Shown here piece after piece: positions 4,394 to 52,742 of a DNA stretch of 64,000 nt (positions are counted from its first letter, which is position 1; every line of letters starts with the position of its first letter). The notes below the pieces were generated by a model, which made no database searches, was not told the DNA's origin, and saw only the letters and a list, made by a program, of their open reading frames with translations. The stretch is taken from positions 20,469,045 to 20,533,044 of the forward strand of contig NC_092680.1 in NCBI RefSeq assembly GCF_964355755.1, written 5' to 3'. The DNA comes from Antedon mediterranea (taxonomy: Eukaryota > Animalia > Echinodermata). The translations under genes were made by a program, and so were the position numbers.

Positions 4394-5329
4394 CTATATA
4401 CTGACGACTTGAGTTCTTCCATTGGTACTGATCTTTGAAATGTCTTGTTTTATTTTACCAACTCCACGTTTGAATTCTTTATAACATGTACAGTAAATAA
4501 ACGGATTAATCATTAGATTGAGATTCAACAACAATGCAGATACGTGGTACACAGTATTCCTAAGATCATCATTCCATAATATGTAAATCTGCGTGCAAAT
4601 AGCATGTGGTGTTATTGTTAAAATGTATACGGTTGCTACTGAATAAAGTGTTTTTATCAAATTTAAATGGACAACTCGCCTGAAACTTGGTTGGCCTGTT
4701 TGCGGGGCTATTGAGTTGCTGGTTTTCGATAATTCGAAATACATTTTCAAGTAACAATACAGGATGATGCAGACTGGTACAGACTGGTGAAAGTTTGAAA
4801 TCACAATAACCAAAGCTACGTTGTTAGTTTTTAGTTCACATTTGTTTAATATAGGCTCAGAATCTTCATTTATTAAAACAAACAGCGAAATAAGACAACC
4901 ACAAATATAGGGTAATAGAATAATGCCGAAATAGGTCTTACCCAGTCGTCCAGCTGCTGTTTTCTTACGGTAGAATATTGGATGAACTATCGCTAAGTAT
5001 TGTTCGATCGTGAGTGTAACAAAGTTGTATGTAGATGCTGCTGCGAACATATAAAAGAAAAAATGAAGTTTACAATATTTAGTTCCTTTAATTATATCGG
5101 AACAAAAAAACAACAAGAACATCAAAGATCCCAAGAAATCAATCAGTGTCTGATTTACAATTAGTTTCACCGACAAAGACTTTTTGTAACTTCTGTTGTA
5201 GAGAAACACAGCCAAAGTTACCAAGTTTCCAACGACACCAAATGAAGCAACAATCCATCGCAAAATAACGAGAGGCATTGGATCTTGCCATTCTATGCTA
5301 GCCAACGTATCATTTTTAAATTCAGCCAT
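4394..5329 (-). CDS. Intronless rhodopsin-family (class A) orphan GPCR, 311 aa from ATG 5329
   Basis: MAEFKNDT (N-glycosylation site), TM1 GVVGNL, TM2 LIDF, TM3 TIEQYLAIVHP (DRY-like), TM5 ILYCY, TM6 ITPH, TM7 INPFIY and a helix-8 FKRG. Confidence 0.9.
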   Translation of the reverse strand: MAEFKNDTLASIEWQDPMPLVILRWIVASFGVVGNLVTLAVFLYNRSYKKSLSVKLIVNQTLIDFLGSLMFLLFFCSDIIKGTKYCKLHFFFYMFAAASTYNFVTLTIEQYLAIVHPIFYRKKTAAGRLGKTYFGIILLPYICGCLISLFVLINEDSEPILNKCELKTNNVALVIVISNFHQSVPVCIILYCYLKMYFELSKTSNSIAPQTGQPSFRRVVHLNLIKTLYSVATVYILTITPHAICTQIYILWNDDLRNTVYHVSALLLNLNLMINPFIYCTCYKEFKRGVGKIKQDISKISTNGRTQVVSI

Positions 5330-5975
5330 AGTGTCGGTTTGAATACGAAAACAAAAATATGTGCTATTTATGCGATTTGTATTAAATCGTGGCCTAACAA
5401 CGGTCGTTTTATACGTTTTTAAAGCATGCGTCAAAGAAATTACTCGTCACCAATTGGATTATATCAGTGTTGTATTAAAAATAAGCTCGAATACCTCCCT
5501 ATTTAAATATTACCAATTGTTGTAGAATGAGTTGTAAATAGTGACCTTTAGGTAAGACGAATTATAGTAGACAATATCTTAATGCATATGTACATTTTAT
5601 AGACATACGTGTACAGGTAAAGATTCAATTCAGCAAGATCTTATATAAATAAGCTTATGTAATTAAAGCCAGGTTATAAATTTGATTTCAATAATAATGG
5701 ACAGCCCATCTAATAGGACAAACTGGCAAAAGAACCTTGTCGGCTGCGTCTTTAATGAGTTCAAATATAACGAAGCATAATTATCGATCATATCACTCTT
5801 CCTTGATCACAAAATTATTGTTTCCTAAGATATTATGTTGAATGCATTGGCGTTACCAAATTAAAAACTCCCGTCAGACCTATTGTCTGACGGGAGTTTA
5901 TTTTGTATCTCCATTGAGATCCAGCCACTGATACCCACAGCATTGTCATTTTTTTCAGTAATTTGCCTTTGGATT

Positions 5976-11330: not shown

Positions 11331-12795
11331 TAATTTGAGTTTGCAATTTTTTTTTTTCTTTTTAATAGGCCTATGAATGAAATATTTCCGAAATAAAAGA
11401 CATCGAATAATAATAATCCAGGGCAAGAATAAATTATATCAATTTAATATAAACTGAATATCAAACAAAATATATTATAGTCACGGCGGTCGGATAACTA
11501 GTTCGAGCTTAATAATTGAGCCCAAAATAGATTGTATTCGCTAACTTTTGTTATTCGTGAGTTGCCGAATTAAAAAAAATTAGGTGGAATTTTGTTCGAC
11601 CACCCCTTTAGCCGCCATTTTAAATTTCAAATTTAACTAAACTTGGTCATCCATGGTATAATCGGAATGGGAATATAAATAAGACCATAGAGATAATTAT
11701 GATATAGATACAATTAAAAGTATATACAGGTGTATAATGTAATCAACAACATGTTTTATTTCTTTGTCCAAACACTCACTTCTTTATGACGTTTTTTCTT
11801 GGCCAATTACAATCGTATCATACATAATGTTTTAGTATACATGGATTGGTCTTCTACAATGGGTGGTTAGCCAGTATTGTTACCAACTCCATAGCCCAAC
11901 GTGTAGCACAGTTATACCTTAGCATAGAAATGCATTGTATGCCTACCTTAGTTACAAAAGTATATAGTACTACAATTAATGAGTGTCTTACTTACAACGA
12001 TCAATCTGTTTTGTGGCACCTCCATTGCCTAAAGGTTGATGTGATGTGAGGTGCAATAACTACGGGGATACACCTGAATAGTTTTATGCAGATTACCCTT
12101 TTCGTTCAGGTTAAAAACCCGTCACTTATACTTGCGACAGTATTATTTTACTATTGTGATTTTAACTTTTTGGATTTTTTTACTCGGGGTACCCGAGTAT
12201 AGTAGGCCTACTCTCTTATCTTCTCGTCTTCTTCTTCCATCTGGACACTATCGAGTAAAAAAGTGCGATTTATAAAGTACTACTCCTTCCTTATTAGTTG
12301 TAGTATTGAGCTTTGGCATGAATATACTACAGGGACATGTCCTCAAAGCTGCTATAGAGACGGATTTTTAAATTTCAAATTCATAGCATAATTAGATTAG
12401 AGCTATTGCTTTGAAAAAGTGTATGTATCTACCAGGGAAGAGTTAAATTACATTAAATTGTAATTTAACTCTTCCCTGGTATCTACAATATACCGCAATG
12501 AATGAATGGCAGTAGGCCTAACGTCAACCATTTACTTGTATCCTTTTAATGTTTTTAATAATTCAGTATTAACTAATGGAAATGCACTTAGTAGTAATTG
12601 CAAATCAAAATGACGCTTTCAACTACATAAATTACTAATAAAATCGAGAAGGCAACTGTTATACAGCAACGCAAGTCATAGAGGTGTGTTTAAAACGAAG
12701 GATGAACAGTGATTCTTAGATCTTCAAACGATTCGTGTCGGCTATAATCTGCAATTATAAATACATATTATATTTTCGAGGAATATCATTTAAGT

Positions 12796-13683
12796 ATGAA
12801 TACAAGTTCGGATACTAACTTAACAGACGTAAGACTTGATAAATCTCTTATTGTCACCGGTGCTGTTGTAAGTAGTATTGGTATCGTCGCAAACTTGTTA
12901 GTCATTTTTGTGTTTGTTTACAACAGAAGTTTTAAGAAGTCTTTTTCAATCAAGTTGTTACTTCATCAGTCTTTCATTGATCTTGTAGGTTCTATAGCGT
13001 TTACTGTTTTTGTTATCTATAACCCCAATTATGATTCCGAAACTTACTATTTATGCATATGTATAGTCTGGTATATATCAGTTACATCTTCATACAATCT
13101 GGTTGTGATAACAATTGAGCGATATATCGCTGTTGTGCATCCCTACATCTATCACCAGAACAAATCAAGAAGAAATATCTTGTACTATTTATGTTTTATT
13201 TTACAATACCTACCAGGATTAATCCCTGTTATTATCGATATTATTAAGACTGAAAAGGTTCCTAACTTACGTGAAAATGACATCATTTCTTTACTGATTA
13301 TTGCATTTCTCGGTTGGGTCTTACCTACCTCAACTATGACATACTGTTATGGATGTATATTATGGAAGCTATTTAGAAGATCAGCAGTTGGTAGTCCATT
13401 ATCACAGCCACAGCAAAGAAAAAACGATGGAAGAAAAACAAATCTTTTATCAACTCTTCTTGCTGTTACCGCAGTGTTTTATATAACATCTACGCCATGC
13501 TATATATGTTGTGCAGCTAATCATTTGTGTACATGCGTTGATCTTACTCTTTATGACATATCGTTGTTGTTATTTGCTTTAAATTTAACAATCAATCCGT
13601 TTATTTACACCATAACTTTCAATCAATTTCAGCAAGAACTTTTGAAGATCATAAATTGTATTATACATTTAGGCCTATTTTAA
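12796..13683 (+). CDS. Intronless class A orphan GPCR, 295 aa
   Basis: N-glycosylation sites NTS/NLT, TM1 GIVANL, TM2 FIDL, TIERYIAVVHP, TYCY, STPC, TINPFIY. Confidence 0.92.
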   Translation: MNTSSDTNLTDVRLDKSLIVTGAVVSSIGIVANLLVIFVFVYNRSFKKSFSIKLLLHQSFIDLVGSIAFTVFVIYNPNYDSETYYLCICIVWYISVTSSYNLVVITIERYIAVVHPYIYHQNKSRRNILYYLCFILQYLPGLIPVIIDIIKTEKVPNLRENDIISLLIIAFLGWVLPTSTMTYCYGCILWKLFRRSAVGSPLSQPQQRKNDGRKTNLLSTLLAVTAVFYITSTPCYICCAANHLCTCVDLTLYDISLLLFALNLTINPFIYTITFNQFQQELLKIINCIIHLGLF

Positions 13684-15163: not shown

Positions 15164-15602
15164 GATACCGAAGTAATTAGAATAACACAACAGTCGTTTA
15201 ATAATTTACCCGTATATGTGTGAAGTGTATTAAGTGAAATTAAATAATTTATTAGTACAGTATTGTTTTGTAATTGAAATACAAAGCATTATAGAGATTT
15301 ACAGCTTTTACTATTGTCAGTGGTTTTTAAATAAACTTAACGCCCACCAAGCTTAGATTAGAAAGAGATACAGAAAAGTGCGAGTCAAAAATAGAAGCAA
15401 CTTTAATATATAAAAGTGTCGGAACTTTATCGGTGAGGTCAGAAACAGAAATGAAGTACTTTCTTTTGATCCAGCAAAGTATCAGTAGGGCGGCTAAGTG
15501 AGAACAGTTTATTATTCTGATATGTGACAGAAATATTTCTTTTATCAAGTTGAGGTACAGCTTTCTACACCAAAACGTATCAACTTATATTTAGAGTTAA
15601 GG

Positions 15603-16457
15603 ATGAATTGTTCTTCAAACTCATCAGAAGGACTTGATAAATATATTATTGTCACCGGTGCTGTTGTAAGTAGTATTGGTATCTTGTCAAACTTGTTAGT
15701 CATTTTTGTGTTTGTTTATAACAGAAGTTTTAAGAAGTCTTTTTCAATCAAGTTGTTACTTCATCAGTCGGTCATTGATCTTGTAGGTTCTATAGCGTTT
15801 ACTGTTTTTGTTGGTTGTAATCCTCGGTATAACTCTGAAACTCTGTTAACAATTATATTCTGGTATATAACAGTAACATCTTCATACAATCTGGTTGTAA
15901 TAACAATGGAACGATACATTGCCGTCGTACATCCGTATGTTTATCGTCGACACAAATCATTAAAGAAAAGGGTGCTGTATATTTCTTTTATAATTCCATA
16001 CCTACCGGGATTAATCGGTGTTATTGTGGATATTATCGAAATTGATAAGTATGTAAAAGTCACTAAAGTGGACACATTGTCTCTTCTGATTTCAACATTT
16101 CTTGGTTGGTTCTTACCTACCACAACTATTACATACTGTTACGGACGTATATTATGGAAGCTATTCAGAAGATCGGCAGTTGGTAGTCCATCATCACCAC
16201 ACCACAATGATCGTAGTAGAAAAACACATCTTTTATCAACTCTTCTTGTGGTTATCGCAGTATTTTATATAACAGTCACGCCATGCTATACATGTTTACT
16301 AATTGATCACTTATGTTCATGTATTCATCATATTATTTCTGAAATATTGTTTCTGTTATTTGCTTTTAATTTAACAATAAATCCATTTATTTACGCCATG
16401 GCTTTCAGTGAATTTCAGCAACGATTTTTTAAGATCATTCACTGTATTGCAAATTAA
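15603..16457 (+). CDS. Intronless class A orphan GPCR, 284 aa, tandem paralog of 12796-13683
   Basis: GILSNL, VIDL, TMERYIAVVHP, TYCY, VTPC, TINPFIY; collinear with the upstream paralog. Confidence 0.92.
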   Translation: MNCSSNSSEGLDKYIIVTGAVVSSIGILSNLLVIFVFVYNRSFKKSFSIKLLLHQSVIDLVGSIAFTVFVGCNPRYNSETLLTIIFWYITVTSSYNLVVITMERYIAVVHPYVYRRHKSLKKRVLYISFIIPYLPGLIGVIVDIIEIDKYVKVTKVDTLSLLISTFLGWFLPTTTITYCYGRILWKLFRRSAVGSPSSPHHNDRSRKTHLLSTLLVVIAVFYITVTPCYTCLLIDHLCSCIHHIISEILFLLFAFNLTINPFIYAMAFSEFQQRFFKIIHCIAN

Positions 16458-18252: not shown

Positions 18253-21200
18253 TCATGGTATTGCAGTGCTCTGTTTTGATTGGCTGAAAGCTTCATACAC
18301 GTTTGCGGCAAAGTCCTTCACACATTCCATTAACAATAGTTCCTACAAAAATTATTTTCATGTCCATTTATACCTGCACAAAGTGATTAGGGATGTCCCC
18401 ACAGATGAAATGGATCAGTCTATTTATGTTGCATTATGGACTTACCTGCACAAAGTAATTAGGGCTGTCCCCACAGATAAAATGGATCTGTCCATTTATG
18501 TTGCATTATGGACTTACCTGCACAAAGTAATTAGGGCTGTCCCCACAGATAAAATCGATCTGTCCATTTATGATGCATTATGGACTTACCTGCACAAAGT
18601 GGTTAGGGCTGTCCCCACAGATGAAATGGATCTGTCCATTCATGATCGGTATCAATTTGGCAAGTGGTAGATTTGTATCACAAGGACTAAAATAAGAATG
18701 TAGAAAACAAAAACGAAATCAGAATCAAATTTTCATATAAATTTAATCTATGACAGTGATCTTTAAACTATGTAAAAGCTCTTCAAAGTCTAATCTGATG
18801 CTTATAGTGTTAATAATGTTTAGTGTCACATAAATGTATATATAATAGATTTTTTCTGTATGTCTGTCCTGCATGGCATTAATTTATTTCACAAACCATA
18901 AGATACGGTGACAACCACATTTACCTTTGCTTCACTAAAACATCAAAATAAGGTTTGAAATGATTGTATTTGGAAACTTATGACTATATTGTAACTATAA
19001 TTTGACTAATACCTTATTGATAATACGTCGAAAGGTTTTTGCTCTGGTTTAGGTTTGAAACTACAGGCAATGTTATCCATGAGACGTGTGAAGGCAGTGT
19101 CCAAACATGCATTCAACACGAGGCAAAAATCAGCACTGAACAGAAAGAGAATATATAAATTAATTTTGCTATTTAATTAATTTGTTTTCTAAATGAAGAA
19201 ATTACAAGTAAGATATATGTCCAGTAAGCATCAGGGAATAATGAAAAACACACAAGGCTGCAATACCACACAAGAAAATATTGTAAGCAAGAACATGAAA
19301 AGAAACAACCAAACAGACAAGTACTAACAAACTAATTATCATGAAACTGCTTCACACCATGTTAAGTCCATGATTCACTCAATATTTTGTATTTTTTTGC
19401 TTTCCTAAAATCAGAAAATTTAAATTAAATATTACTAAAGCGCGGTTGATACTAGAATGCGACGCAGCGACGTATCGACAAAAGTGCTGTATTATGTAAT
19501 TACAAGTGCGAACCGACGACACAACAGTTCTGCAAACATCGTAGGTTTGATTTCACACAAGCAGGGGCAAACACAATAACTGGAAGAGCATTTTCTTACG
19601 TTACGCAGGTTGCGTTATGTTGCGTCGCTAGTGAAAACCAAGCTTTAGTTCTTGGTAAAAACATGAACCATGCTGCGCATATATTTTTTGGACACAATAA
19701 ATATTTTGTGACAAATTGCTGACCTTTCAATCATATCTCTTGTTTCCTGTGATAACCTGTGAAGCATGGATTCATTTTGTGGTAAACAGCATGCCTCTTC
19801 TATATTCTCTATTTGGTCATCTAGTGTTACATCATCTAACTTAAGTTCATTATCTGTTAAACCATGCTCATCCTCGGGAGGAAGAAAATATTTTGCCAAA
19901 CTTGTAGTACTGTTACCAAAATCTGGGAGAAAAGAACGAATTTGTGAACACCTTTAATCTTGAGTCAATGACATTTAAACAAATTACGAGGCTATGATCA
20001 TATACAATTAGGTTATGATCACATACAATTAGGTTATAATCACACACAATTAGGCTATGATCACATATAATTAGGTTATAATCACACACAATTAGGCTAT
20101 GATCATATACAATTAGGTTATAATCACACACAATTAGGTTATAATCACACACAATTAGGTTATGATCACACACAATTAGACTACGATCATATACAATTAG
20201 GTTATAATCACACACAATTAGGTTATAATCACACACAATTAGGTTATAATCACACACAATTAGGTTATAATCACACACAATTAGGCTATGATCATATACA
20301 ATTAGGTTATAATCACACACAATTAGGTTATAATCACACACAATTAGGCTATGATCATATACAATTAGGTTATAATCACACACAATTAGGTTATAATCAC
20401 ACACAATTAGGTTATAATCACACACAATTAGGCTATGATCACATATAATTAGGTTATAATCACACACAATTAGGCTATGATCATATACAATTAGGTTATA
20501 ATCACACACAATTAGGTTATAATCACACACAATTAGGTTATGATCACACACAATTAGACTACGATCATATACAATTAGGTTATAATCACACACAATTAGG
20601 TTATAATCACACACAATTAGGTTATAATCACACACAATTAGGTTATAATCACACACAATTAGGCTATGATCATATACAATTAGGTTATAATCACACACAA
20701 TTAGGTTATAATCACACACAATTAGGTTATAATCACACACAATTAGGTTATAATCACACACAATTAAGTTATAATCACACACAATTAGGCTATGATCACA
20801 TACAATTAGGTTATAATCACACACAATTAGGCTATGATCATATACAATTAGGCTATGATCACACACAATTAGGCTACATACCATCTGTATCCCAAATTTC
20901 AAGCTTCCTTCGAATTTTACCCACAATGCACTCAACATCCTGCAACTGTAGATTCTCTTTTAATGACATTCTGTATAAAAAAAGAAAGCAATGTGATTAC
21001 TGAAGAACAAAGAGCACGAACATTTCGACCAAACATATTTTTAAATAAATCCTAAAAAATGATAATGTTGAATTTTGTTATTGTTTCTTTTGCCTATCTG
21101 AATATTGAGGTGTTTCTTTAATAGTAGACTAAACATTTTGGCAAATTTAAGCCTAATGCAGGTCAAATTAGCAATTGAAATGACAGGTACCTATCTCTTG

Positions 21201-40600: not shown

Positions 40601-43600
40601 TAATTAAAAAAATATAAAAGTTCATAATTTTCAACTTTCACATTAAATTCATACATGTCGGAGCTCTCCTCAGATTAGCAATTATACTATTAAATATAGA
40701 CAAGTCAGACCTCCCCTTAAATTCGCAACCTTTATCAGTTTTTCATTTTATGATTACCAAAAATCTAGAAACTAAAAAAACCTTAACTCACGTTTATTCT
40801 CACTCTGTTCTTGCGTGCCTCGTCGATCTTTGCACGTATCTTGTTACGTCTATATTCCTCGTAAGCGAACGGATCAGCTATTGCACGTGCCTTGTGATAT
40901 AATCGAATATCCATAAAGTAACCGTGCATGTATGCACGTAAGAGGTTAGAACCAATGAGATTTGACAAGCCTACAACAAAGAAACAAGTTATACATCTTT
41001 ACATATGATGCCAACTGCTATATAAATACATTGCTTCATTAAAAGCTGTAATAGAGGGTAAAGCCAAAGAGTATGGGTATAAAATCAAAACAAAACATTG
41101 AGGGCACTTATCTTGCTAAATTCCCTGCATATTATAAGTTTAATTTATCAAAAAGAAATTTTGTTGTCAAAATTTACCCCACTTTATATGTGAGACTGTA
41201 TTTTAGGAGTGAGGGAAACTATATCTCCCTCTTAAAATGACGCCATCTTACCTAAACTGTCAAGATCATTGCGGGTCACAAACTTGTAATCATCATAAAC
41301 TGTGTTCATTGTGGTTTCTTCAAGTTCTTCCGTTAGATTATCGAGGAAGGAACACCACCGAGGGGCTGGGCCAAGAGACTAAAGTAAACAAGAACAAACA
41401 AAACATGATTTTGAATGCTAAAAAAAAAAAAACGCAAATAAAAATTGACAGCACTTCTATGAAAAAAAATCAAAATGAGAGTTTCCAGTTTTTTATGGAG
41501 TTTGGTTTTGAAAATTACTATTTATATAATAATCAGAAATAATTGTTCTTACTGGTACAAAGTACGTAAGCATGGTTGGGGCCTCATTGGCCATCAAAAC
41601 TAATCCAGAGTTGGGGACCAAACACATGTCATTAATGTCATTCTCTGTTTCTATAGATGTGAATGGTTTACCCTGCAACAAACAAAATAATATACGGTTA
41701 TTTATAAGTAGTAGTTTATTGTAGAAAGTGTTCTCAATATGGTATTGAAGCATCAATGCAACATGTCAAAGAGCAGAAGTGTGGTTTTAGAATAGAATTT
41801 TCAATAATAATATTATTCATTCTTAAGCTCTATCTACACTATCAAACCTTATGTGACAAAAAAATGTGATATTCTTATATGGACATGATGTCATATCACT
41901 ACCATATTTGGGCACATCACACATTTTTTGTTTGATAGTGTAGACAGAGGTTTACATATACACAGTGGTTGTACATTCAATGTCCGAGTGGTCATTAGGT
42001 TTGTTTTCCTTCTGATTTTGGTAAGGTACGATAATTTTTAAAATTCAAATTTTCAGATTGTAATTGTCTGTCTGGTTTTTAATTAATACATTGCTAAACT
42101 AGAGGGTACTCCGAGAGTACCCACCTCCGCCTACTATAAAATTCCCTTACATAAAATGTCCCCAAAAAATATATATATATATATATATATATTTTATTAG
42201 TTCTAAGTGTAAATAAGCTAACTGCACACTAAAAAGTTGTGGATGAGAGTTTGGTGTAATGGTTATGTATCCAGCCTCTCACAGTTCAAGTCCCGCTGAG
42301 TTTTTTTTTATTATTATTAATTTATTTCTTTTTTTTGTGGACCTTTTTCTTTGACACCGACCCTTCAAAGTTTAACCACAATTATATGGTGAGTCATTGA
42401 TCATTGTAGCTAAGTTTGGTGAGAATCGGAAAAAAATGTGGTCTCTAGGCAGTAAAATAGTTTTTTGTTAGTTGTGACCTTGACCTATGACCTTTTCCCC
42501 TCAAATTCGAACGCGTCCGAGCTTTTGGGGCATAGATCATTGTGGCAAATTTGACAAAGACAATTACCGTGTTACGATTCCACATTTTGACGACCTTCTT
42601 ATCAGCTGATAGCACCAACTCCATAGAGTCTTGGAAGGTTATGGATTTGATTGGTAGCCCATATTGATGGTCCTTGATGTACAGCGGTTTAGTTGCCCTT
42701 ATGTCATACATTAATACTTGCCCAGTGCTTGTACCCACTGCCATGTGCAAGCCATCTTGGAACTTGAGACATGTAACTGAGGGTATCCGATGAACACTAG
42801 AACATTACAAATTTAACATTAAAATTAGTATTGGCCAGACATAGCATTGAACATTAAAGTAATCTGTAATCAAAACTTAAGCTCTGTCTACACTATCAAA
42901 CTTTATGTGACAAAAAAATGTGATGTTCCCATATACATTATGGACATACTGATGTCATATCATTACCACATTTGGGCATATCACTACCATATTTGGGCAC
43001 ATCACACTTTTTTTCAAACTATTTTGATAGTGTAGAAAGAGCTATAAAATAACATCTAAATTAAAACACCTACTCAGAATCAGATTCTGTAACACTGCTG
43101 AGGGCACAGTCTAGAATACCAACACGACCTCTGACCCTAGGATCCCAGCATTCAACTCGTCCTTCAGCTGTACCAACTGCCAATAGATGGTGGGCTGGAT
43201 TGACTTCACAAGCGTTTATCCCACTGACAAAAGGGTAAAACAAATGGATAGCAATACAACTTTCAAATTTTTTTCAAGTGCTGGTAGGCCCTACTTTATT
43301 TGTTGTTGCTTATATGCAATTTATATTTTATTATGATATTTACACATCATGTTTAAAAAGCTGGAAAATAAAGTAGATTAACAATATGTTCAATGCTATA
43401 ATTAAAACCTTTAAACCCATAAAGTAATTCTATGTCAAATTATTTTGAGTATCTACTGTACTATGTAAAATGTCCAGAAATAAATATAGAACTTCAGTAG
43501 CTTATAAAAAATTCCAAAATGTGAACAAAATCCTGAGATATTGAGAAACATTTTGGGTTGATTTAATGTGGAATTACGGTCACCTTCCTTTCATTTTAAC

Positions 43601-46327
43601 TCACCTTGCTTCTGTGACCCATGAACTTAAAAAACGACCTTGCTCTAGGTTAATTCTGAAAATTTCTGAGCTAATCACATAAATAAAAGAATATGTAAAT
43701 AATTATAAAGCATAATACATGTGTATAAGATATTGCAATATGATTGCATATTTCAACATATTCAATTAAATTTTTTATTCATCCCGAATGCAAACGACAG
43801 AAATAATAAATAGTAATAATCCATTTAAAATACAAAAATTTAATCACATTTAAATGTAACATCAAATCTTCATCTTTTCATTTATAATACTACATATATA
43901 TATGTTATGATCACATTTCTACTGTAGTAAAATAAGCAACAATTGAATACACCAATGAGAAAATCTTATTAAAAATGTTTAATGAATATTCATAAAATCT
44001 TACCTCGCTCCAACAAGAAACAGATCACAAGACGGTTTGTGGTACACCATATCTCGTCCAAACTTTGGTATTCGTAGTTGATGATATTTGCCATAACGTG
44101 CGTGAAATTCTACGCAACGATTGCACTGTAGAAAAACCATCTAGTTGAAGAGAAATGTTAACAAATTGGATAGGATTAACAAAAATCACAATATTATAAT
44201 AAAATAAATAAAATCAATCTGGACCTAAATAAACTTGAAACTATCTTTACCTTTGAGTAATCTTCAGACAAAGTAACAAACTTGATCACTATATATTAAA
44301 AATAATATTATTTTAATAAATGAAATACAATGATGTAGCAAACAAAATGATCTTTTCTAAAAATCATCAGTAAAAACAAAAAAGATAAGATATGATATGC
44401 CCATATATAGACATGATGATGTCATATCACCACCATATTTGGGCATATCACTACCATATTTAAATAAATATTTTTATGTCAAACTAGTTTGATAGTGTAG
44501 ACAGAGCTTTAGAACGTAAATTATACAAAAATAAATTTAACAAAACATTATTGAGAATTAGACGCTACCTTCTGCGTCCATACAACGTTCAAATTTCATG
44601 GAGAGTTGTGACATGTCGTAGCACCGCACACGTGGCTTATACGTTCCAGTTACAAGTACGTACTGGCCATCCGGCGTCATCTGTATACCTGTACTTACGG
44701 TAGGCATAGTAAAGTCTTGTATTAACTCAATGCGTTTTCTAATATCTAAATATAAAATTTAATGATTAATAAAACCATCTGAATGTTCTTGTTGTGTCAA
44801 TTTAAAAGAATGTTAAAGAAATTCATGAATTATATCTTTAAAGCTTTTATCCCACTTTGATGCAATGCAATGGTATAGACACAATGCAAGTGAGTTGACC
44901 ATTCACAAATGACCATGTCGTGATTGGTCAAATTACGTATGTCGTGCTTACGTCCTTGTGTTGCATCCAAGTGGGAAGCAAGCTTTAGGCCATATTTCAT
45001 TCACATGAAAAAATTGATCGATGACCATTTCATTTGATTTCTTGTGGACAATTTTTAGTGTGTGTGTGTATAGAGCAGCTTATACCATAACAAATACCAC
45101 TCTTTAGATTTAGTTTTTAATTGTGACACAGCAGGGGTTTACATTTTATTTGTAATACTTCTGAATTTAGGAACTTGGTGCATTTACTCACCTCCATCAG
45201 ATTTCAGGAGAGCCCTTTTCTTTCTATCTGAAAGCCACTAAAAAAAATGTTCAAAAATTACATACAATTTATAGTCACAGAGTCATATTTAATAATTAAA
45301 TAATATGTGTCACTTGCTTGCTTGTAACTTGGCAGTCCGAAATAATTATTTAACATTTTATTTAGATTACGGTATACATACATTTATAGGCCTCCTAGGC
45401 CAGCCTAGGCCTACATGATTTAGGCCTAGTTCCAAACTCCTTAAAAAAAGCTTTGGGCCGAATCGTCCAGCATTCAGCTGTAGTAAGTAAAGTACTACTA
45501 TCTAGCTAGCGTACTACCTACAGTAATTACTAGGCCTAGCTAGGCTAGGATAGGGGGAACAGACGATCGGGACCACGGACGATCGTCATACCAGTTGGGC
45601 CCGATCGTCCAGTGTTTTCAGAACCACGTTGGGCCCGATAGTCTTACCAGTTGGTCCCGATCGTCTTAGCATTGGGCCCGATAGTCTTTTGTGTTATATA
45701 AAATAATGTGCCATCATCATTTTTCATTCCTAGTGCTAGTGTCGTGCTTTTCTTGCGTAATCAAGATTTTAATTAAAAAGGTTAATTAGATTTTTTCTGA
45801 TTCTATCATAATTTTCCCCTAATTAAGTCTTAAGACTACTGCTTTTAAGAATTTCTTACCAATACTTTCGATTTATGAATAAATGTGATTGATTTTGATT
45901 GTTGTTATTGTGTAGTTTGTATTCACTATTCGCATAGTTATCTTTTAAAATTTTCCAAGAATGTTTTGGGCCCGATCATCTTGAATGAAGTGGGCCTGAT
46001 CGTCTGGGCCCGATCATCCGTGAAGTGGTCCAGATCGTCTGATAACCAAAATAGGTAGTGTAGTGGGCCTGGCCCTCTCTACTCTACTACTACTAGGCTA
46101 GGCCTAATACTGTACTAGTATCAGGGCCTGGCCTAGCCTAACTAGCTAGCTAGCTAGGCCTCCTAGCTAGAGTACTACTACTACTACTAGGCTAGACTAG
46201 GCAGGCCCAGTCGATTTCTTGTGTATTAGTATTTAATTAAAATATACAGGCTTTTAAATACCTCTGGTAAAGATTTACCAACACTAAGATTGTAAATTTT
46301 AACATCATTTGCATTTGAAACCTGCAT
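37687..46327 (-). CDS. NOL10: Nucleolar protein 10 (ENP2 homolog; WD40 + NUC153), multi-exon
   Basis: Exon 1 46327-46262 [22 protein letters not shown]; then [12 protein letters not shown]; [35 protein letters not shown]; [20 protein letters not shown]; [27 protein letters not shown]; [20 protein letters not shown]; [24 protein letters not shown]; LPKVNRDLA; [30 protein letters not shown]; last exon ..[18 protein letters not shown] at 37687. Confidence 0.96.
38495..38675. mobile_element. Representative of the dominant Harbinger-type MITE family (~16-17 copies in window)
   Basis: TIR AGCTCTGTCTACACT..AAAC / GTTTGATAGTG..TAGACAGAGCT with TAA TSD; internal CCCAAATATGGTAGTGATATG repeats. Other copies near 17431, 21508, 21592, 27940, 30871, 31530, 32650, 34120, 37290, 37853, 39582, 41826, 42880, 44385, 47490 and 58560. 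Confidence 0.85.
42098..42560. mobile_element. Helentron/HINE-like fragment(s) in a NOL10 intron
   Basis: Starts ACTAGAGGGTACTCCGAGAGTACCC (hairpin) and contains TGACCTTGACCTATGACCTTT motifs. Confidence 0.4.
45553..46047. mobile_element. Degenerate foldback/MULE-like MITE in NOL10 intron 1
   Basis: CAGACGATCGGGACCAC ... GTGGTCCAGATCGTCTG inverted ends; repeated GGGCCCGATCGTC units. Confidence 0.6.
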
Positions 46328-46493: not shown

Positions 46494-49400
46494 ATGGTCC
46501 TTCTACGAGGTACGTAAAACACAACTTGGTGGATTGGTTGATGGTGGTACCTGGTAACAAATAATTATTCTTAAAAAATCGTTTGCTGGGGTAAAGTGTC
46601 TGAAATGCTTGAAGCTTTTCTGATCAACCACTCTTAGATATAGCCTAGGAGTAGGTCTAGCTACAGTTTAGTTAGTCAAGAAAGTTGGTCTAGGTAGCCG
46701 GCCTAGGCCTACTAGGAGGCCTAGCCTAGTAGGCTAGGCCTAGGCCTGGCCCTAGTAGGCTAGCTGGCTAGTCCTAGCTAGCTTAGGCCCCTAACCTCTT
46801 TTTATTTAATATGTATGGAGTTTTAGACTACCTAGGCCTATACCTAGCTCGAGAAGAGGCTCGGCCTAGCTAAGAAGGCCTATTATACTGTAGGCCTAGC
46901 TAGTAGTATTAAGGTGTGTGTGTGCCAAACTAGATTTCCGTCCCTCCACCTAAAACATCATTTGTAAGCCTAATATTAGTATTACTAGCCTATTATTTAT
47001 TGTTTTTTAGATTTACCACTCATTACATATTTATAAAAGATGTTACGGGTCCTAACGAAGGCTAGCAAAGCAGGTAAAATTGTTTTAAAATCTTTTTTCA
47101 TAATAAAAAATAAACACACACTCACAACATGTAACATTGAGTCTTGTATATAAAATATTAACCTGTGTGAGATTGCATTAGTTTTTTGTTGTTGAGTTAA
47201 AGTGTTTGATTTATTTATTGCGTTTGAGGAATATTCTGGCAACAATAGAAAAAATCCCAGGGATTGGAAACATTCTCAGATCGTAGATTTCTTATTTTTC
47301 TATGGTGGACTGAGTGAAAGGTACTCTCATATTAATAATAATCTTTTTTGAGATGAACGTAGAGGATTCTCTGTTTCCTGTTAAGTCAAAGGGCCATGGT
47401 CTGTAAGTCAAGTGCATCCTGTTCAAGATACTGATGGCTAATTAGGGTCATGCATAAATTCATTATTTCAGCTACAACACTCTAATACTATGTCTACACT
47501 ATCAAACTAGTTTAACAAAAAAAAACTGTGATGTGCCCAAATATGGTAGTGATATACTCAAATATGGGAGTGATTTGACATTATCATGTCCATATATGGG
47601 CACATCACATGTTTTTCACATAAAGTTTGATAGTGTAGACAGAGTATTAGTGTACATTATCTTCCAGTTCAGACCTACAGTGTTATGATGAATTCTGTAT
47701 GTTTGAACAAAAGATTAGTGGAAGCCTCTTACAACAATACCTTTTAGTTCATTTCTTTTATATTTATGCAAATTGTCAAGGATAACCATAAGCTATTAAT
47801 TCACTGTCTTAAAGTTTGGAATCTTGTTTTAAAATATACTGTATATATATAATGAACACAAGAACTAGATAAAGATAAAAAAGGTATAATGAACACAAGA
47901 CTTACATACTGTAAACAAAGTCTTATAGAAAGTGGAGTGGAGTTTTTTTAACACCCCGGTCAGTGACTTGTAATAAAAGCATACAGTATATCAAGTTTTT
48001 GCTAAGTGCTACTATGACACTAAGTCTGTAAATGTGAGCTTGTTTATTATCCAAACCAAAAATTTTGATTTGCATGTCCACTATGTCGACTGTATGACAT
48101 TCAAACATTCATCTGTGAACTGCTCAGATTCCAAATGGAAAAGTCCTTATAATCTTCAGCCAGCATAATTACACTGTTGCCTTAAAGTCTTATTTCTAGT
48201 TCATTTAATTTGATTGACTAATTTACTAAGCTATACTACTACTGTAGCACTAAACACCATATAATTTTATGTTTGGACACCGTCTCAATGATGATTAAAG
48301 AACTACAGTACTCTATATGAACTACTTTATTAAGATATTATTTACTGTATATCATGGAGTACTCCATGCTGTATATTTATTAAACAAATTGATTCTGTGT
48401 TTATTATAAAATGTTTAATTATAGTAAATAAACTACATTTATATATATATATCCCAATTAGACATTTTTCAAGAATAAATCAAAAATAAAAAGTTAGGCT
48501 TTTTTAAACAGAATTTTTAGTGTATTGTATTATTGTTCAGTAAGGAAGGACACCAAAAAATTGTCCTAATTATTTTATTGATTCCCTGGAAATCTATATT
48601 CCTGGGTAGGTCTAGGCCAAGCATATTTCTTACTGTACATTGTATTAAGCGCAAATTGCAAGGCGTGGCCAGCCCCATGAGTCTCGTTTGCTGATTTTAA
48701 TCAAACTAATGATTTGCACTAATGTCCTGATCATGTAAACCGTGACAAATAAAAAAGTAATCTTTTATAATCTAATGTTGGCATATTGTTACTGCAAGAG
48801 TGTGATTACACTTAAAATATACAATGACAATGCACATTTGTATTGATATGAATGTAACCTTTAGAAAGTTTACACTTGTTTTCAATGATTTTAAAATAAT
48901 TGTTAAATATTAATATATTTCTGTCAAAGGTCTAAAAGCAACATGTTTACCCAGCCTAAGGTCAAGTCATAGGTCAAGATGTCGTCTGCTACTTCAACAG
49001 ACTGCTATCAGATGTCTGAGTACAAGGCAGCCTAACCAAAAAAAACCAAAACTGATCATATTTGACAAGGATGGCACTCTCATCTGTTGTCACTCTATCT
49101 GGACACCATGGGTCAAAGACACAACAGACAGGTACTGTGTGTTTATATCTTATTTTTATCTTATCTTACCTTTAGTAAAAAACAGGGTTGACAAGCCAGA
49201 CAGTAGGATTTGATTAGGAGAGGCTTTTGTCGAGACTCTGTGCTACACTTGAGTATTTCAATGGAAATGAAGTTGCTCAATTATCCACCCAAGACCCATA
49301 TCTCTATACATTCACTAGAACATCTGACTACAAGAGTTGTTGGGGTTTCAGTTGTAATTATAATTGTTCATTTTCAGAGTTTGGAGAGGTTTCCAATGAC

Positions 49401-52400
49401 ATAAAATAAGCACCCCTCATTCAAAAAATCAACTGCGCTTTACAAATTCAAAAGCATTTATAACCCACCTTACTGACACACAATTATAATTGTTTATTTA
49501 TTGAGATAATGCTAATTATTATTTATTTTCATTAATATTTAATTTCTTAAAACAAACACATGTGCATTTAATAATTTCTGTCAGACTGAAATTATTTAAT
49601 ATTCATCATCAAATATCAATATTACATTTTAATGCATAAATACAGATGTTTTGCTTTCATATATTTTTTTGATAGTTTATTTTAGCATTGTCTCCTATTT
49701 CAGATAAATTGAAAGAAACAAGATATTAAAGCATTTGATTTATTATTTTTTGAACTTGTTATTTTGGAGAATGAAAATTTCTTTTCTTGCACTTCCATTT
49801 TTCCTTCCTCAATTTAACTTTTATTTTAAATGTACAGTTCATATTATAATGTTTATTTCTGGTGTTCTAGATTTATAAAGAAAACAGGCCTTAATCTGGA
49901 AGAAAAAATACATCATTTGCTAAGTTATGATCCAAAAGAGGACAGACTCCTGCCAGGTCTTTTGGCGGAAAGTACGTCACAGATCATCAAAAGACAACTC
50001 TGCCAGCTTCTCCAAGACGAAGGCATCAGCGTCGATCGTAGCTTAGAAATTGTTGAAGATTGCTACAAAGAGATGGGCACAATAGACGCAAATGTGTTAG
50101 TCTCGCACGGAGATGTAAACAAGTTAATGACCGAGATTAAGGAACAAGAGATCAAAATAGCAGTGTGTACGGCAGATACAAGAGCAGGGACCATAAACAC
50201 TCTCAAAGTGATAGATGTTGAACATCTGGTTGACATGGTTGTTTGTTCAGATGATCCTGGACTGCTCCCCAAGCCTAATGCAGATGCTGCCTTTGCTATT
50301 TGTGAGAAGTTAGGCGTGGAACCAGAGAGGACCGTTATGGTTGGAGACACAATGACGGACATCAACTTTGGCATCAATGCTGGCCTCGGAAATATTGTTG
50401 GTAAGAAACAATTTTATTTTACTTTAGAAATATTTAAATTTATAAATAAGATTGACACACTCTATACATACAGTACAAATAGATTATGAAAGGAAAAATA
50501 TCTTTTGAAAAATTATATTGATAACGTCCATTTGTATATCGCCATTCCAACGATCATTGCTCATGGCGCTGTGGACTTAAAATTTACACTCTTGAACATG
50601 CTTCTTCTCTAATAAGGGCCACGTCACGTTCTCTCATCTGTCTACGACACATGAGTAATCCCCTACTTGTTTTAAAAGATGTACCGTACAGGTTCTTTAA
50701 AGTGCACACACAAGCATTTTTTGTACACTGGACTTAATAGTTTTTTAGTCCTTATCTGAGAATATTTCAAGTTCTACCTCAAGAACTATGAAGTGAGTGA
50801 GTGAGCCTTTAACCCTTGCCGATATTATAGCTATAGATTACTGTTCTTGTCTTAACTGCTCATCCACTCACTAATTCAACTTAATAAATTTTTCCTTTCT
50901 GTTATAGGTGTTCTGAGTGGCGTTTCAACGAAGAAAGATTTGCACAAATCTGCAGATTATGTCATTGATGATATTCAAGGTCTTACAAGCCTGTTCCTCA
51001 ACCGCAGTTCTCAATTACCAAATAAGCCACAGCGTCATGGCGTTTTTAATACGCCGGCTCGTTCATTTTCAACAACTTCAAATCGTTCTCAGGAATACTC
51101 TCACGTGATTGTAGGAGCAGGGTCAGCAGGTTGTATTCTTGCGAACCGTCTAACCGAAGATCAATCTAACAATGTCATGTTGCTAGAGGCTGGGCCTAAA
51201 GACTACACTTGGAAGATCCACATGCCTGCTGCGTTAGTTTACCCTCTGTGTGATGATAAGTATAACTGGTTTTACCACACTGTCCCTCAAACACATATGA
51301 ATAGTAGAAAGATGTACCAACCCCGTGGTAGAGTCTGGGGTGGGTCATCGTCCCTGAATGCAATGTGTTATGTCAGAGGTCATGCTTTAGACTACGATGG
51401 CTGGGAAAAGGCCGGAGCTGAAGGTTGGTCCTACGCCGATTGTTTGCCGTACTTTAAGAAAGCTCAGTGCCATGAGTCAGGTGAAAGTGAATATCGAGGG
51501 GGAAGCGGACCGCTGAATGTGTCGCGCGGTAAAACAAATAATCCACTATTTAACGTTTTTCTAGAGGCAGGGCAACAAGCAGGGTACCCTCGTACTCAGG
51601 ATTATAATGGATATCAATTCGAAGGATTTGATTTTATGGATTTTACAATTCACAAAGGCATTCGTTGGAGTACAGCAAATGCGTATTTGCGACCTGCTCT
51701 GAAAAGGTCAAACTTAAAGGTCACTAGTAAAACACTTACGACAAGGGTTCTATTTGACGGAACTAAAGCTGTTGGTGTGGAGTACAAACAGGGTGGGGAG
51801 ATTAAAACTGTACGAGCAGATAAAGTTATTTTAAGTTGTGGGTCGATAAACACGCCACAGCTGTTGATGTTGTCTGGAGTGGGAAATGCAGATGAATTGA
51901 AGAAACATGACATTCCAGTTGTTAACCATCTACCAGGAGTTGGACAAAACCTGCAAGACCATTTAGAAGTTTATGTTCAGATGGCTTGCTCACAGCCAGT
52001 CTCCCTTTATAAAGCACAGTGGAAATTTCCTCACAACATGATTAAGATTGGCCTCCAGTGGTTTCTCCTCCAAACTGGTTTAGGAGCGACTTCTCATCTA
52101 GAAGCGGTTGCATTCATCCGAAGCCGTGCTGGTGTAGAATATCCAGATATCCAGTTCCACTTCCTGCCATCCTCTGTCAAAGATCATGGCCGGGTAAATC
52201 CTGAACAACATTCTTTTCAAGTACACGTTGGAGCGCAAAGACCAGAAAGTCGCGGGACAATCGCGCTCCAATCCAAAAACCCTAAAGACCATCCGTTAAT
52301 AGATCCAAATTATCTGTCGACAGAAAACGATCGATGGGAAATGAGAGAATGCATCAAACTTGCACGAGAAATTTTTGAACAAGATGCGTTTGCAGCATAT

Positions 52401-52742
52401 CGTGGGAAAGAGATTTTACCCGGGGTAGATATGCAATCGGATGAACAACTAGATGCGTTTGTAAGAGAACATGGAGAGACTGCATACCATCCGTCTTGCT
52501 CTGCCAAAATGGGCAGTGAAAAAGATCCAATGGCTGTTGTTAATAAAAGAACTGAGGTATTTGGAATGGAGAACCTGTACATTGTGGATGCCTCAATAAT
52601 GCCAAATGTGACCACTGGCAATCTGAATGCACCTGTTACCATGATGGCTGAGAAGGCAGCTGATATTTTTCGTGGTCGAGAAAAACTCGCTCCATCAGAT
52701 GCCCCAGTTTACAAACCATCGAGTATAGAAACGCAACGTTGA
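46494..52742 (+). CDS. CHDH: Fusion: mitochondrial presequence + HAD-superfamily (class IA) phosphatase + choline dehydrogenase (GMC oxidoreductase); 860 aa, 4 exons
   Basis: Exons 46494-46509, 48930-49131, 49871-50400 and 50908-52742 total 2583 nt; all junctions are GT-AG and phase-compatible. HAD motifs: LIIFDKDGTL, VCTAD, PKPN, VMVGDTMTD, ..GVLSGV..ADYVIDDI. CHDH motifs: VIVGAGSAGC, IHMPAAL, PRGRVWGGSSSLNAM, VGQNLQDHLE, YHPSC, GNLNAPVTMMAEKAAD. Exon 1 is the least certain part. Confidence 0.88.

Follow-up and report, generated by a model that had tools for sequence, protein, structure and literature searches.

A gene of the crinoid Antedon mediterranea, deposited under the name choline dehydrogenase and carried on the + strand of a 64,000-nucleotide stretch of contig NC_092680.1 (positions 20,469,045 to 20,533,044; hereafter, the window), raises the question of whether its product works as one enzyme or is made to be divided into two. 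The product (P0001) is 866 residues long and is assembled from four coding exons; from its N- to its C-terminus, it comprises a presequence-like start, a HAD domain, a linker and a GMC oxidoreductase domain, as assigned with Pfam and NCBIfam. An initial annotation of the sequence had described the linker as a second, internal presequence bearing a cleavage motif for the mitochondrial processing peptidase (MPP). From the conservation of that motif across orthologs, we predict that MPP cuts the precursor into a HAD protein of ~30 kDa and a dehydrogenase of ~62 kDa, and we regard this outcome as likely. The features concerned are given below, in window coordinates.

47040–47073, + strand: exon 1, as in the deposited model; beginning of the predicted mitochondrial presequence, with a start similar to that of the Anneissia ortholog (P0002).
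48930–49131, + strand: exon 2, with AG/GT ends, found in contigs of two studies; remainder of the predicted presequence, the N-terminal MPP-like site and HAD motif I.
49010–49024, + strand: N-terminal R-C-L-S-T motif (R39), the predicted presequence cut; it lies within residues 1–46, which have a predicted local distance difference test (pLDDT) score below 50 and include a helix at 26–39.
49064–49078, + strand: HAD motif I, DKDGT (complete DxD), from the exon translation.
49871–50400, + strand: exon 3; HAD cap and core with motifs II–IV (CTAD, PKP and GDTMTD); Pfam HAD_2, E 6e-19, and Hydrolase, E 4e-17.
50908–52742, + strand: exon 4; C-terminal end of the HAD domain, linker, whole choline dehydrogenase and stop codon in one open frame; contigs from two studies join it to exon 3 by splicing.
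50973–51092, + strand: end of the last HAD helix and interdomain linker; predicted disorder at ~51006–51083 and pLDDT below 50 at residues 289–314.
51060–51074, + strand: internal R-S-F-S-T motif (R307), fitting RX(F/Y/I/L)(S/A)(S/T); predicted MPP cut between 51065 and 51066.
51066–51089, + strand: octapeptide F309–S316, matching the R-10 pattern of MIP (motif from PMC8835746).
51093–52739, + strand: GMC oxidoreductase, choline dehydrogenase (CHDH/BetA) family; Pfam GMC_oxred_N and GMC_oxred_C, TIGR01810 and Foldseek.
46494–46509, + strand: alternative start proposed earlier (MVLLR), absent from P0001 and probably not the main start codon.

Once joined, the four exons translate to P0001 letter for letter. 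The fusion is real at the level of both DNA and transcript, and is not an artefact of the gene model, because a single exon, exon 4, encodes the final strand and helix of the HAD domain, the linker and the entire GMC domain, and because exons 2, 3 and 4 are joined in one single contig in each of two studies (contigs were examined from four sequencing runs, none of which is on record as RNA, and two of the four gave spliced contigs). For the first coding exon, the basis is the deposited model together with an argument from contig depth: 60.5 × 62/244 = 15.4, which equals the observed depth and fits an exon of ~62 bases ending at 47073, so that depth would favour this exon over the MVLLR start. 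The N-terminus proposed in the initial annotation is only partly retained: its R-C-L-S-T motif is present, in exon 2, but its ATG at 46494 differs from the deposited start at 47040. The product sizes given there (~60 and ~25 kDa, versus ~90 kDa uncut) are also revised by calculation, to 62.5 kDa (or 61.6 kDa) for the dehydrogenase and 29.6 kDa for the HAD product, versus 92.1 kDa for the uncut chain.

The 40-residue linker had been quoted exactly: it is the translation of 50973–51092, it contains no Asp or Glu, five Arg plus Lys and 11 Ser plus Thr, and it includes ARSFSTT. We nevertheless reject the absence of acidic residues as evidence, since an acid-free run of at least 40 residues arises in 41% of 20,000 shuffles of the protein (p ~0.41) and two longer runs, each of 44 residues, lie inside the GMC domain; moreover, a linker free of acidic residues over its full length is found in only 5 of 55 orthologs. 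The informative part of the linker is the motif. Across the whole protein, R-x-[FLYI]-[SA] has two matches only, in the N-terminal IRCLSTR and in the ARSFSTT of the linker.

Of 68 proteins collected to define the set of linkers, 55 were used, a GMC start coming after an intact HAD end in each; the 13 excluded were 10 that had no GMC domain, one whose HAD domain was truncated, one fusion in reverse order and another in which the search pattern missed the start of the GMC domain. A second set of 26 fusions, found later among 261 new proteins, brings the total to 81 linkers. Three patterns were scored: the R-x-[FL]-S-T proposed at the outset, a strict R-x-[FY]-S-[TS], and the published consensus for MPP followed by ICP55, RX(F/Y/I/L)(S/A)(S/T) (PMC8847149). 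The published consensus is present in 50/55 and 23/26 HAD–GMC linkers, as compared with shuffle means of 1.9 and 1.0 and maxima of 7 and 6 in 1000 shuffles. The strict pattern occurs in 46 of the 55 (shuffle mean 0.61, maximum 4) and in 23 of the 26 later linkers. Conservation of R-x-[FL]-S-T in ortholog linkers had been suggested as a check on the proposal, and it is borne out: 33/55 and 19/26 linkers carry this pattern, far above the shuffle means of 0.33 and 0.22. As a control, the published consensus was sought elsewhere in these fusions, and it was found in 0/37 linkers between the first and second HAD domains (HAD1 and HAD2) of the same proteins, in 3/55 HAD domains and in 0/55 GMC bodies. 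Among N-termini, it is present in 7 of 45 fusions and in 12 of 57 named standalone CHDHs, the latter having been chosen by hand from 88 proteins without a HAD match, with unnamed, partial and HAD-remnant models left out.

The strict motif extends over 12 of the 13 named groups, the acoel having a looser form only, and when the set is thinned to <80% GMC identity it is still seen in 18/23 linkers, with 11/23 matching R-x-[FL]-S-T. The remainder of the linker varies widely: lengths range from 20 to 115 residues, the site lies 8–42 residues from the GMC start and, with the motif removed, the linker can be aligned to that of Antedon in just 2 of 54 orthologs. Two or three sites are present in 23 of the 81 linkers. 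At positions outside the motif definition, there is no Asp or Glu from −4 to +5 around the first sites, and Ser or Thr occupies +4 in 65% of cases. That four to five residues should persist where the surrounding linker is free to vary, and does not align, suggests that the motif itself is under selection.

The conservation test, thus, supports the internal MPP site as a likely cut site, but the accompanying label of second presequence is not supported. In the 30 residues before the site, the hydrophobic moment is 0.30 in Antedon versus 0.67 at its own N-terminus (medians, 0.46 versus 0.67), and this segment is richer in Pro and Gly than are N-termini; the net charge before the site is +4 in Antedon, with a median of +3 versus −3 for the HAD–HAD control linkers. 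The first 30 residues of the Antedon protein, by comparison, have a net charge of +8, no acidic residues and the moment of 0.67 already quoted. The AlphaFold model (mean pLDDT 86) has two confident domains, and pLDDT falls below 50 only at residues 1–46 and 289–314; the predicted presequence contains the helix at 26–39, whereas the linker is modelled as coil, with neither helix nor docking onto the domains. With a low hydrophobic moment and no predicted helix, the linker is unlikely to be a second import presequence, and it would be better called an internal cleavage determinant, the site being predicted to lie in an unstructured and accessible linker. The predicted template modelling score (pTM) is 0.67; as this is about the value expected from the GMC domain alone (550 of the 866 residues), the model suggests that the HAD and GMC domains have no fixed relative orientation.

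The GMC half is readily placed. It scores 751 bits against TIGR01810 (betA; cut-off 732) and 833 bits against PRK02106 (cut-off 605), its best Foldseek match is BetA (9lq0; E 7e-56), and it is 62–70% identical to standalone echinoderm and vertebrate CHDHs, with which it groups in the tree. It belongs to the choline dehydrogenase (CHDH/BetA) family and, by family membership, would oxidize choline to betaine aldehyde. Standalone CHDHs have ~600 residues and no HAD domain, as illustrated by the Apostichopus enzyme (600 residues, GMC domains only; PMC10559093), whereas the GMC part of the Antedon protein is fused behind one.

In the HAD half, catalytic motifs I–IV are intact (DKDGT with both aspartates, CTAD, PKP and GDTMTD), a complete set that is common to the HAD-IA hydrolases of the DKDGT group; no characterized member of this group was found in NCBIfam, the PDB or the ESM Atlas, the last of which returned generic HAD clusters only. 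DKDGT itself is present in 17/17 single-HAD proteins, in 39/41 first HAD domains of two-HAD proteins and in 124/149 family representatives. In the second HAD domain of the two-HAD orthologs, the DxD is mostly lost (DLHGT in 26/41) and the linker between the two HAD domains is without the cut motif; this domain is possibly a pseudo-enzyme that stays attached to the active one, and a regulatory role, as proposed for the HAD domain of ACAD10, is plausible by analogy. Identity with phosphonoacetaldehyde hydrolase (PhnX) was rejected, TIGR01422 giving 36 bits versus a cut-off of 220.

A possible substrate is suggested by the bacterial relatives, for which gene context was taken from the best 80 of 545 loci, nearly all from Chloroflexota and with shared synteny that inflates the neighbour counts observed. 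The HAD gene lies behind an ABC transporter in 45 of these 80, and a choline, betaine or methylamine-type gene lies within ~5 kb in 34; the neighbours include GcvT/dimethylglycine dehydrogenase-like proteins (16), OpuAC betaine-binding proteins (11), a corrinoid protein (7), MttB (4), a GbsB-like dehydrogenase (3) and betA (1). The background in five of these genomes (20.2 Mb, with 41 GcvT and 6 OpuAC matches) corresponds to ~1.5 and ~0.2 of the 80 loci by chance. This context, and the fact that fusion to choline dehydrogenase-type enzymes has occurred independently two times, lead us to favour a choline-supplying phosphatase, with phosphocholine as the simplest source, although the assignment is tentative and we put it at somewhat less than an even chance.

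Some individual members of the HAD family merit separate mention. In an Acidiferrobacteraceae locus (L068:3160-5726), betA is divergent from the HAD gene and adjoins it. In another locus (L079:852-5756), the HAD gene adjoins phnW, phnA and a phosphonate LysR regulator, which hints that some members act near aminoethylphosphonate breakdown. Other fusions in the family (P0085, P0149, P0175 and P0067) involve an MFS transporter, RNase H-like domains and a metallo-beta-lactamase fold.

Taken together, these assignments lead to the following scheme. The presequence would direct import of the chain into mitochondria, where MPP would cut at R39 and, after R307, between S308 and F309, acting on a chain that has yet to fold, in line with the proposal made for Arg5,6 (PMC8734313). 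The new N-terminus would then be trimmed by ICP55 (one residue) or by MIP (eight residues). In Antedon, the sequence after the cut fits the R-10 pattern, such that octapeptide removal would leave Q317 as the first residue, with the first GMC strand following two residues later, and R-10-like patterns follow 30 of the 46 strict sites of the orthologs; the pattern on its own also matches 29/55 HAD domains and 36/55 GMC bodies, however, and, because it discriminates so weakly, the MIP step is a possibility only, with removal of F309 alone by ICP55 being equally possible. One precursor would give one-to-one synthesis of the HAD protein and the dehydrogenase and, more speculatively, with a likelihood a little under even, the HAD protein would free choline from phosphocholine for the dehydrogenase, the two thereby catalysing consecutive steps toward betaine. 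The protein is a probable member of the MPP-split tandem precursors: two complete enzyme domains are present in one frame and one transcript, and the junction carries a conserved consensus in 73/81 linkers versus 0/37 controls.

Such precursors have been described previously, namely, Arg5,6 of S. cerevisiae, Atp25, Rsm22-Cox11 and Etp1 of S. pombe, and RPS14 of rice (PMC8734313). The initial annotation had cited Arg5,6 and Rsm22-Cox11, and these do exist as MPP-split tandem precursors; both are fungal, however, and mammalian ACAD10 provides a closer precedent (Paquay et al. 2024, PMC11342911). The Arg5,6 type resembles the Antedon protein in its layout of presequence, enzyme, internal MPP site and second enzyme, conserved over long evolutionary distances, but it is fungal or plant in origin and has an internal matrix targeting signal-like (iMTS-L) profile at the junction, whereas the Antedon junction is positive and weakly amphipathic, and the HAD–CHDH fusion has apparently been undone several times. 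ACAD10 has two MPP consensus sites within a disordered linker and is cut there, as seen in mouse tissue and human cells, and its products are two enzymes that act in consecutive steps of one pathway (PMC11342911). Both it and the Antedon protein are animal mitochondrial precursors with an N-terminal HAD domain, a C-terminal flavoenzyme-type domain and a disordered linker bearing the MPP consensus. They differ in that the cut in ACAD10 falls between its kinase and ACAD domains, so that its HAD domain, which is without the full DxD and has negligible phosphatase activity, stays on the kinase; in Antedon, a HAD domain with a complete DxD would be released alone, the partner is a GMC enzyme, and cleavage is predicted, whereas in ACAD10 it has been demonstrated. 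Single R-to-A mutants of ACAD10 are still cut, and triple and quadruple Arg mutants are partly cut (PMC11342911); a test with a single-Arg mutant could, therefore, give a false negative. The same study removes any claim to a first animal case. CHDH goes unmentioned in the main text of a paper on human ICP55 motifs (PMC13672106), and no report of a HAD–CHDH fusion or of its processing was found in the largely open-access literature searched. The HAD–CHDH pair is, thus, likely to be a new candidate case of a mechanism already known from fungal Arg5,6 and mammalian ACAD10.

HAD–GMC fusions occur in crinoids, hemichordates, amphioxus, molluscs, nemerteans, an annelid, a free-living flatworm, copepods, a nematomorph and an acoel, and most of those from lophotrochozoans contain two HAD domains. 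Standalone CHDHs are present in the sampled coral, brachiopod, tunicate and vertebrates. In a quick tree of GMC domains, built from 67 hand-chosen rows and with its deep nodes open, the standalone enzymes of starfish, urchin, brittle star and sea cucumber nest in the starred clade with the fused hemichordate and crinoid enzymes, which argues for loss of the HAD domain; a tree of HAD domains places the standalone proteins of nematodes and the HAD–HAD proteins of trematodes among the fused animal HADs, which argues for fission. The nematode proteins carry an N-terminal extension of their own; with the standalone CHDHs, they show that either half can occur by itself, which counts in favour of two separable products. 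From these placements, the fusion would seem to be ancestral among the sampled bilaterians, and we infer that it has been undone several times. A fusion in the reverse order, GMC–HAD, is represented by P0068 and its cluster members P0335 and P0340, in which both domains are distantly related and fall outside the animal groups, and in which an R-C-F-S at the junction precedes HAD motif I by 16 residues; these proteins apparently represent one independent origin of the same design, and not three. In a non-animal dataset, that of Rhodelphis marinus, P0055 is a HAD–CHDH fusion with the linker motif whose HAD domain nests among those of animals; it may reflect an old origin, transfer or contamination, and this protein was not used to date the fusion. 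Two Branchiostoma CHDH models, P0247 and P0255, have a presequence-like start and the linker motif and no HAD domain, apart from a short remnant of the HAD tail in P0247; the cause may be a real, ongoing loss of the HAD domain, skipping of exons or a faulty gene model. In its broadest form, the proposal would be of an undescribed mitochondrial route from phosphocholine through choline to betaine in most invertebrate lineages, made since early bilaterians at least as a two-enzyme MPP-split polyprotein, with the cut-site design having evolved twice (the second time in reverse order) and the phosphatase half having been dropped by vertebrates, tunicates and non-crinoid echinoderms; we consider this full scenario doubtful.

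Other explanations for the linker motif need to be weighed. The protein may be a single bifunctional chain in which the motif survives from the former CHDH presequence and is cut rarely or never, a possibility that had also been raised at the outset. The linker does occupy the position of a presequence, it is without amphipathic character, and a similar R-C-F-S is found in some vertebrate CHDH presequences; a neutral leftover, however, would not be expected to persist in 73 of 81 linkers that otherwise fail to align, nor to be commoner there than in true CHDH presequences (12/57), nor to be doubled or tripled in 23/81. We, therefore, disfavour a relic and regard it as quite unlikely: the site looks selected. 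Selection might instead act through a shorter transcript, or an internal start, that uses the linker as the N-terminal presequence of a CHDH-only isoform. Gene models of relatives with a short or missing HAD domain (P0247, P0255, P0225 and P0244) would suit such an isoform, as would the 17 of 73 linkers in which a Met precedes the last site by 10 residues or more, but the stretch between residues 240 and 346 of the Antedon protein is devoid of Met, and none is found upstream of the site in the other 56; furthermore, one contig spans exons 2, 3 and 4 in each of the two studies (although contigs drop rare variants), and the poor amphipathic helix would make a poor import signal, leaving this explanation highly improbable. 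The motif could also be conserved for some other reason, as a basophilic phosphorylation site, a docking peptide or the site of a matrix protease other than MPP. R-x-x-S/T resembles the motifs of basophilic kinases, and the residual cutting of the ACAD10 Arg mutants leaves room for another protease; yet an aromatic residue followed by Ser and Thr is what the MPP/ICP55 consensus specifies, the motif stands anywhere from 8 to 42 residues away from the GMC domain and, in the reverse fusion, lies ahead of the HAD domain instead, and the linker does not dock in the AlphaFold model. A role of this kind is, in our view, very unlikely.

Set against cleavage by MPP into a choline-supplying phosphatase and a dehydrogenase are several further considerations. 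Eight of the 81 linkers do not have the published motif that the other 73 carry, the strict pattern was picked after the linkers had been viewed (unlike the other two), and molluscs dominate both ortholog sets. The linker does not have the amphipathicity of a presequence, whereas Friedl et al. 2020 (PMC8734313) tie internal cleavage to iMTS-L sequences, which it appears to require. Even for ACAD10, the protease is not certain, given the residual cutting of the Arg mutants. As regards the HAD half, its scores fall below every function-specific NCBIfam cut-off, and a PDB sequence search gave no close match among solved structures (best E 1e-25, over about half of the profile); the bacterial loci are nearly all syntenic ones from Chloroflexota, with betA flanking the HAD gene in 1 of the best 80 of 545; and, given the loss of DxD from second HAD domains, some HAD domains of these fusions may be regulatory.

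Few MPP-split precursors are known, ACAD10 being the only animal case with mapped cleavage into two enzymes in the papers found. If the predicted cleavage is correct, a split HAD–CHDH precursor would be conserved across about ten invertebrate phyla, and its natural fused, split and reverse-order versions would make it possible to examine why a fusion that is later cut is retained by cells. The finding also points to a substrate for an uncharacterized HAD family and, in molluscs and other marine invertebrates, to a possible extra step on the way to betaine. Where these proteins of 870–1200 residues are annotated, or studied in recombinant form, as one enzyme, the object of study may in effect be a precursor. 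The test applied here, in which a motif is sought within an otherwise unalignable linker, could be used proteome-wide to find further such precursors.

Elsewhere in the window, exons of a NOL10-like WD40 gene lie on the − strand at 42448–44758, divergent from the CHDH gene. Three long open frames at 4397–5446 (− strand), 12748–13680 (+ strand) and 15528–16454 (+ strand) encode rhodopsin-family G protein-coupled receptors and form a local cluster. Intron 1 of the CHDH gene contains a very high-copy short repeat (47490–47645), with a contig depth thousands of times background; pieces similar to it, by eye, lie near 42880–43040 and 44390–44500, and it is probably a small transposon. Finally, a tandem array at 19989–20873, composed of 42 copies of a 21-base unit, yields long spurious open frames.

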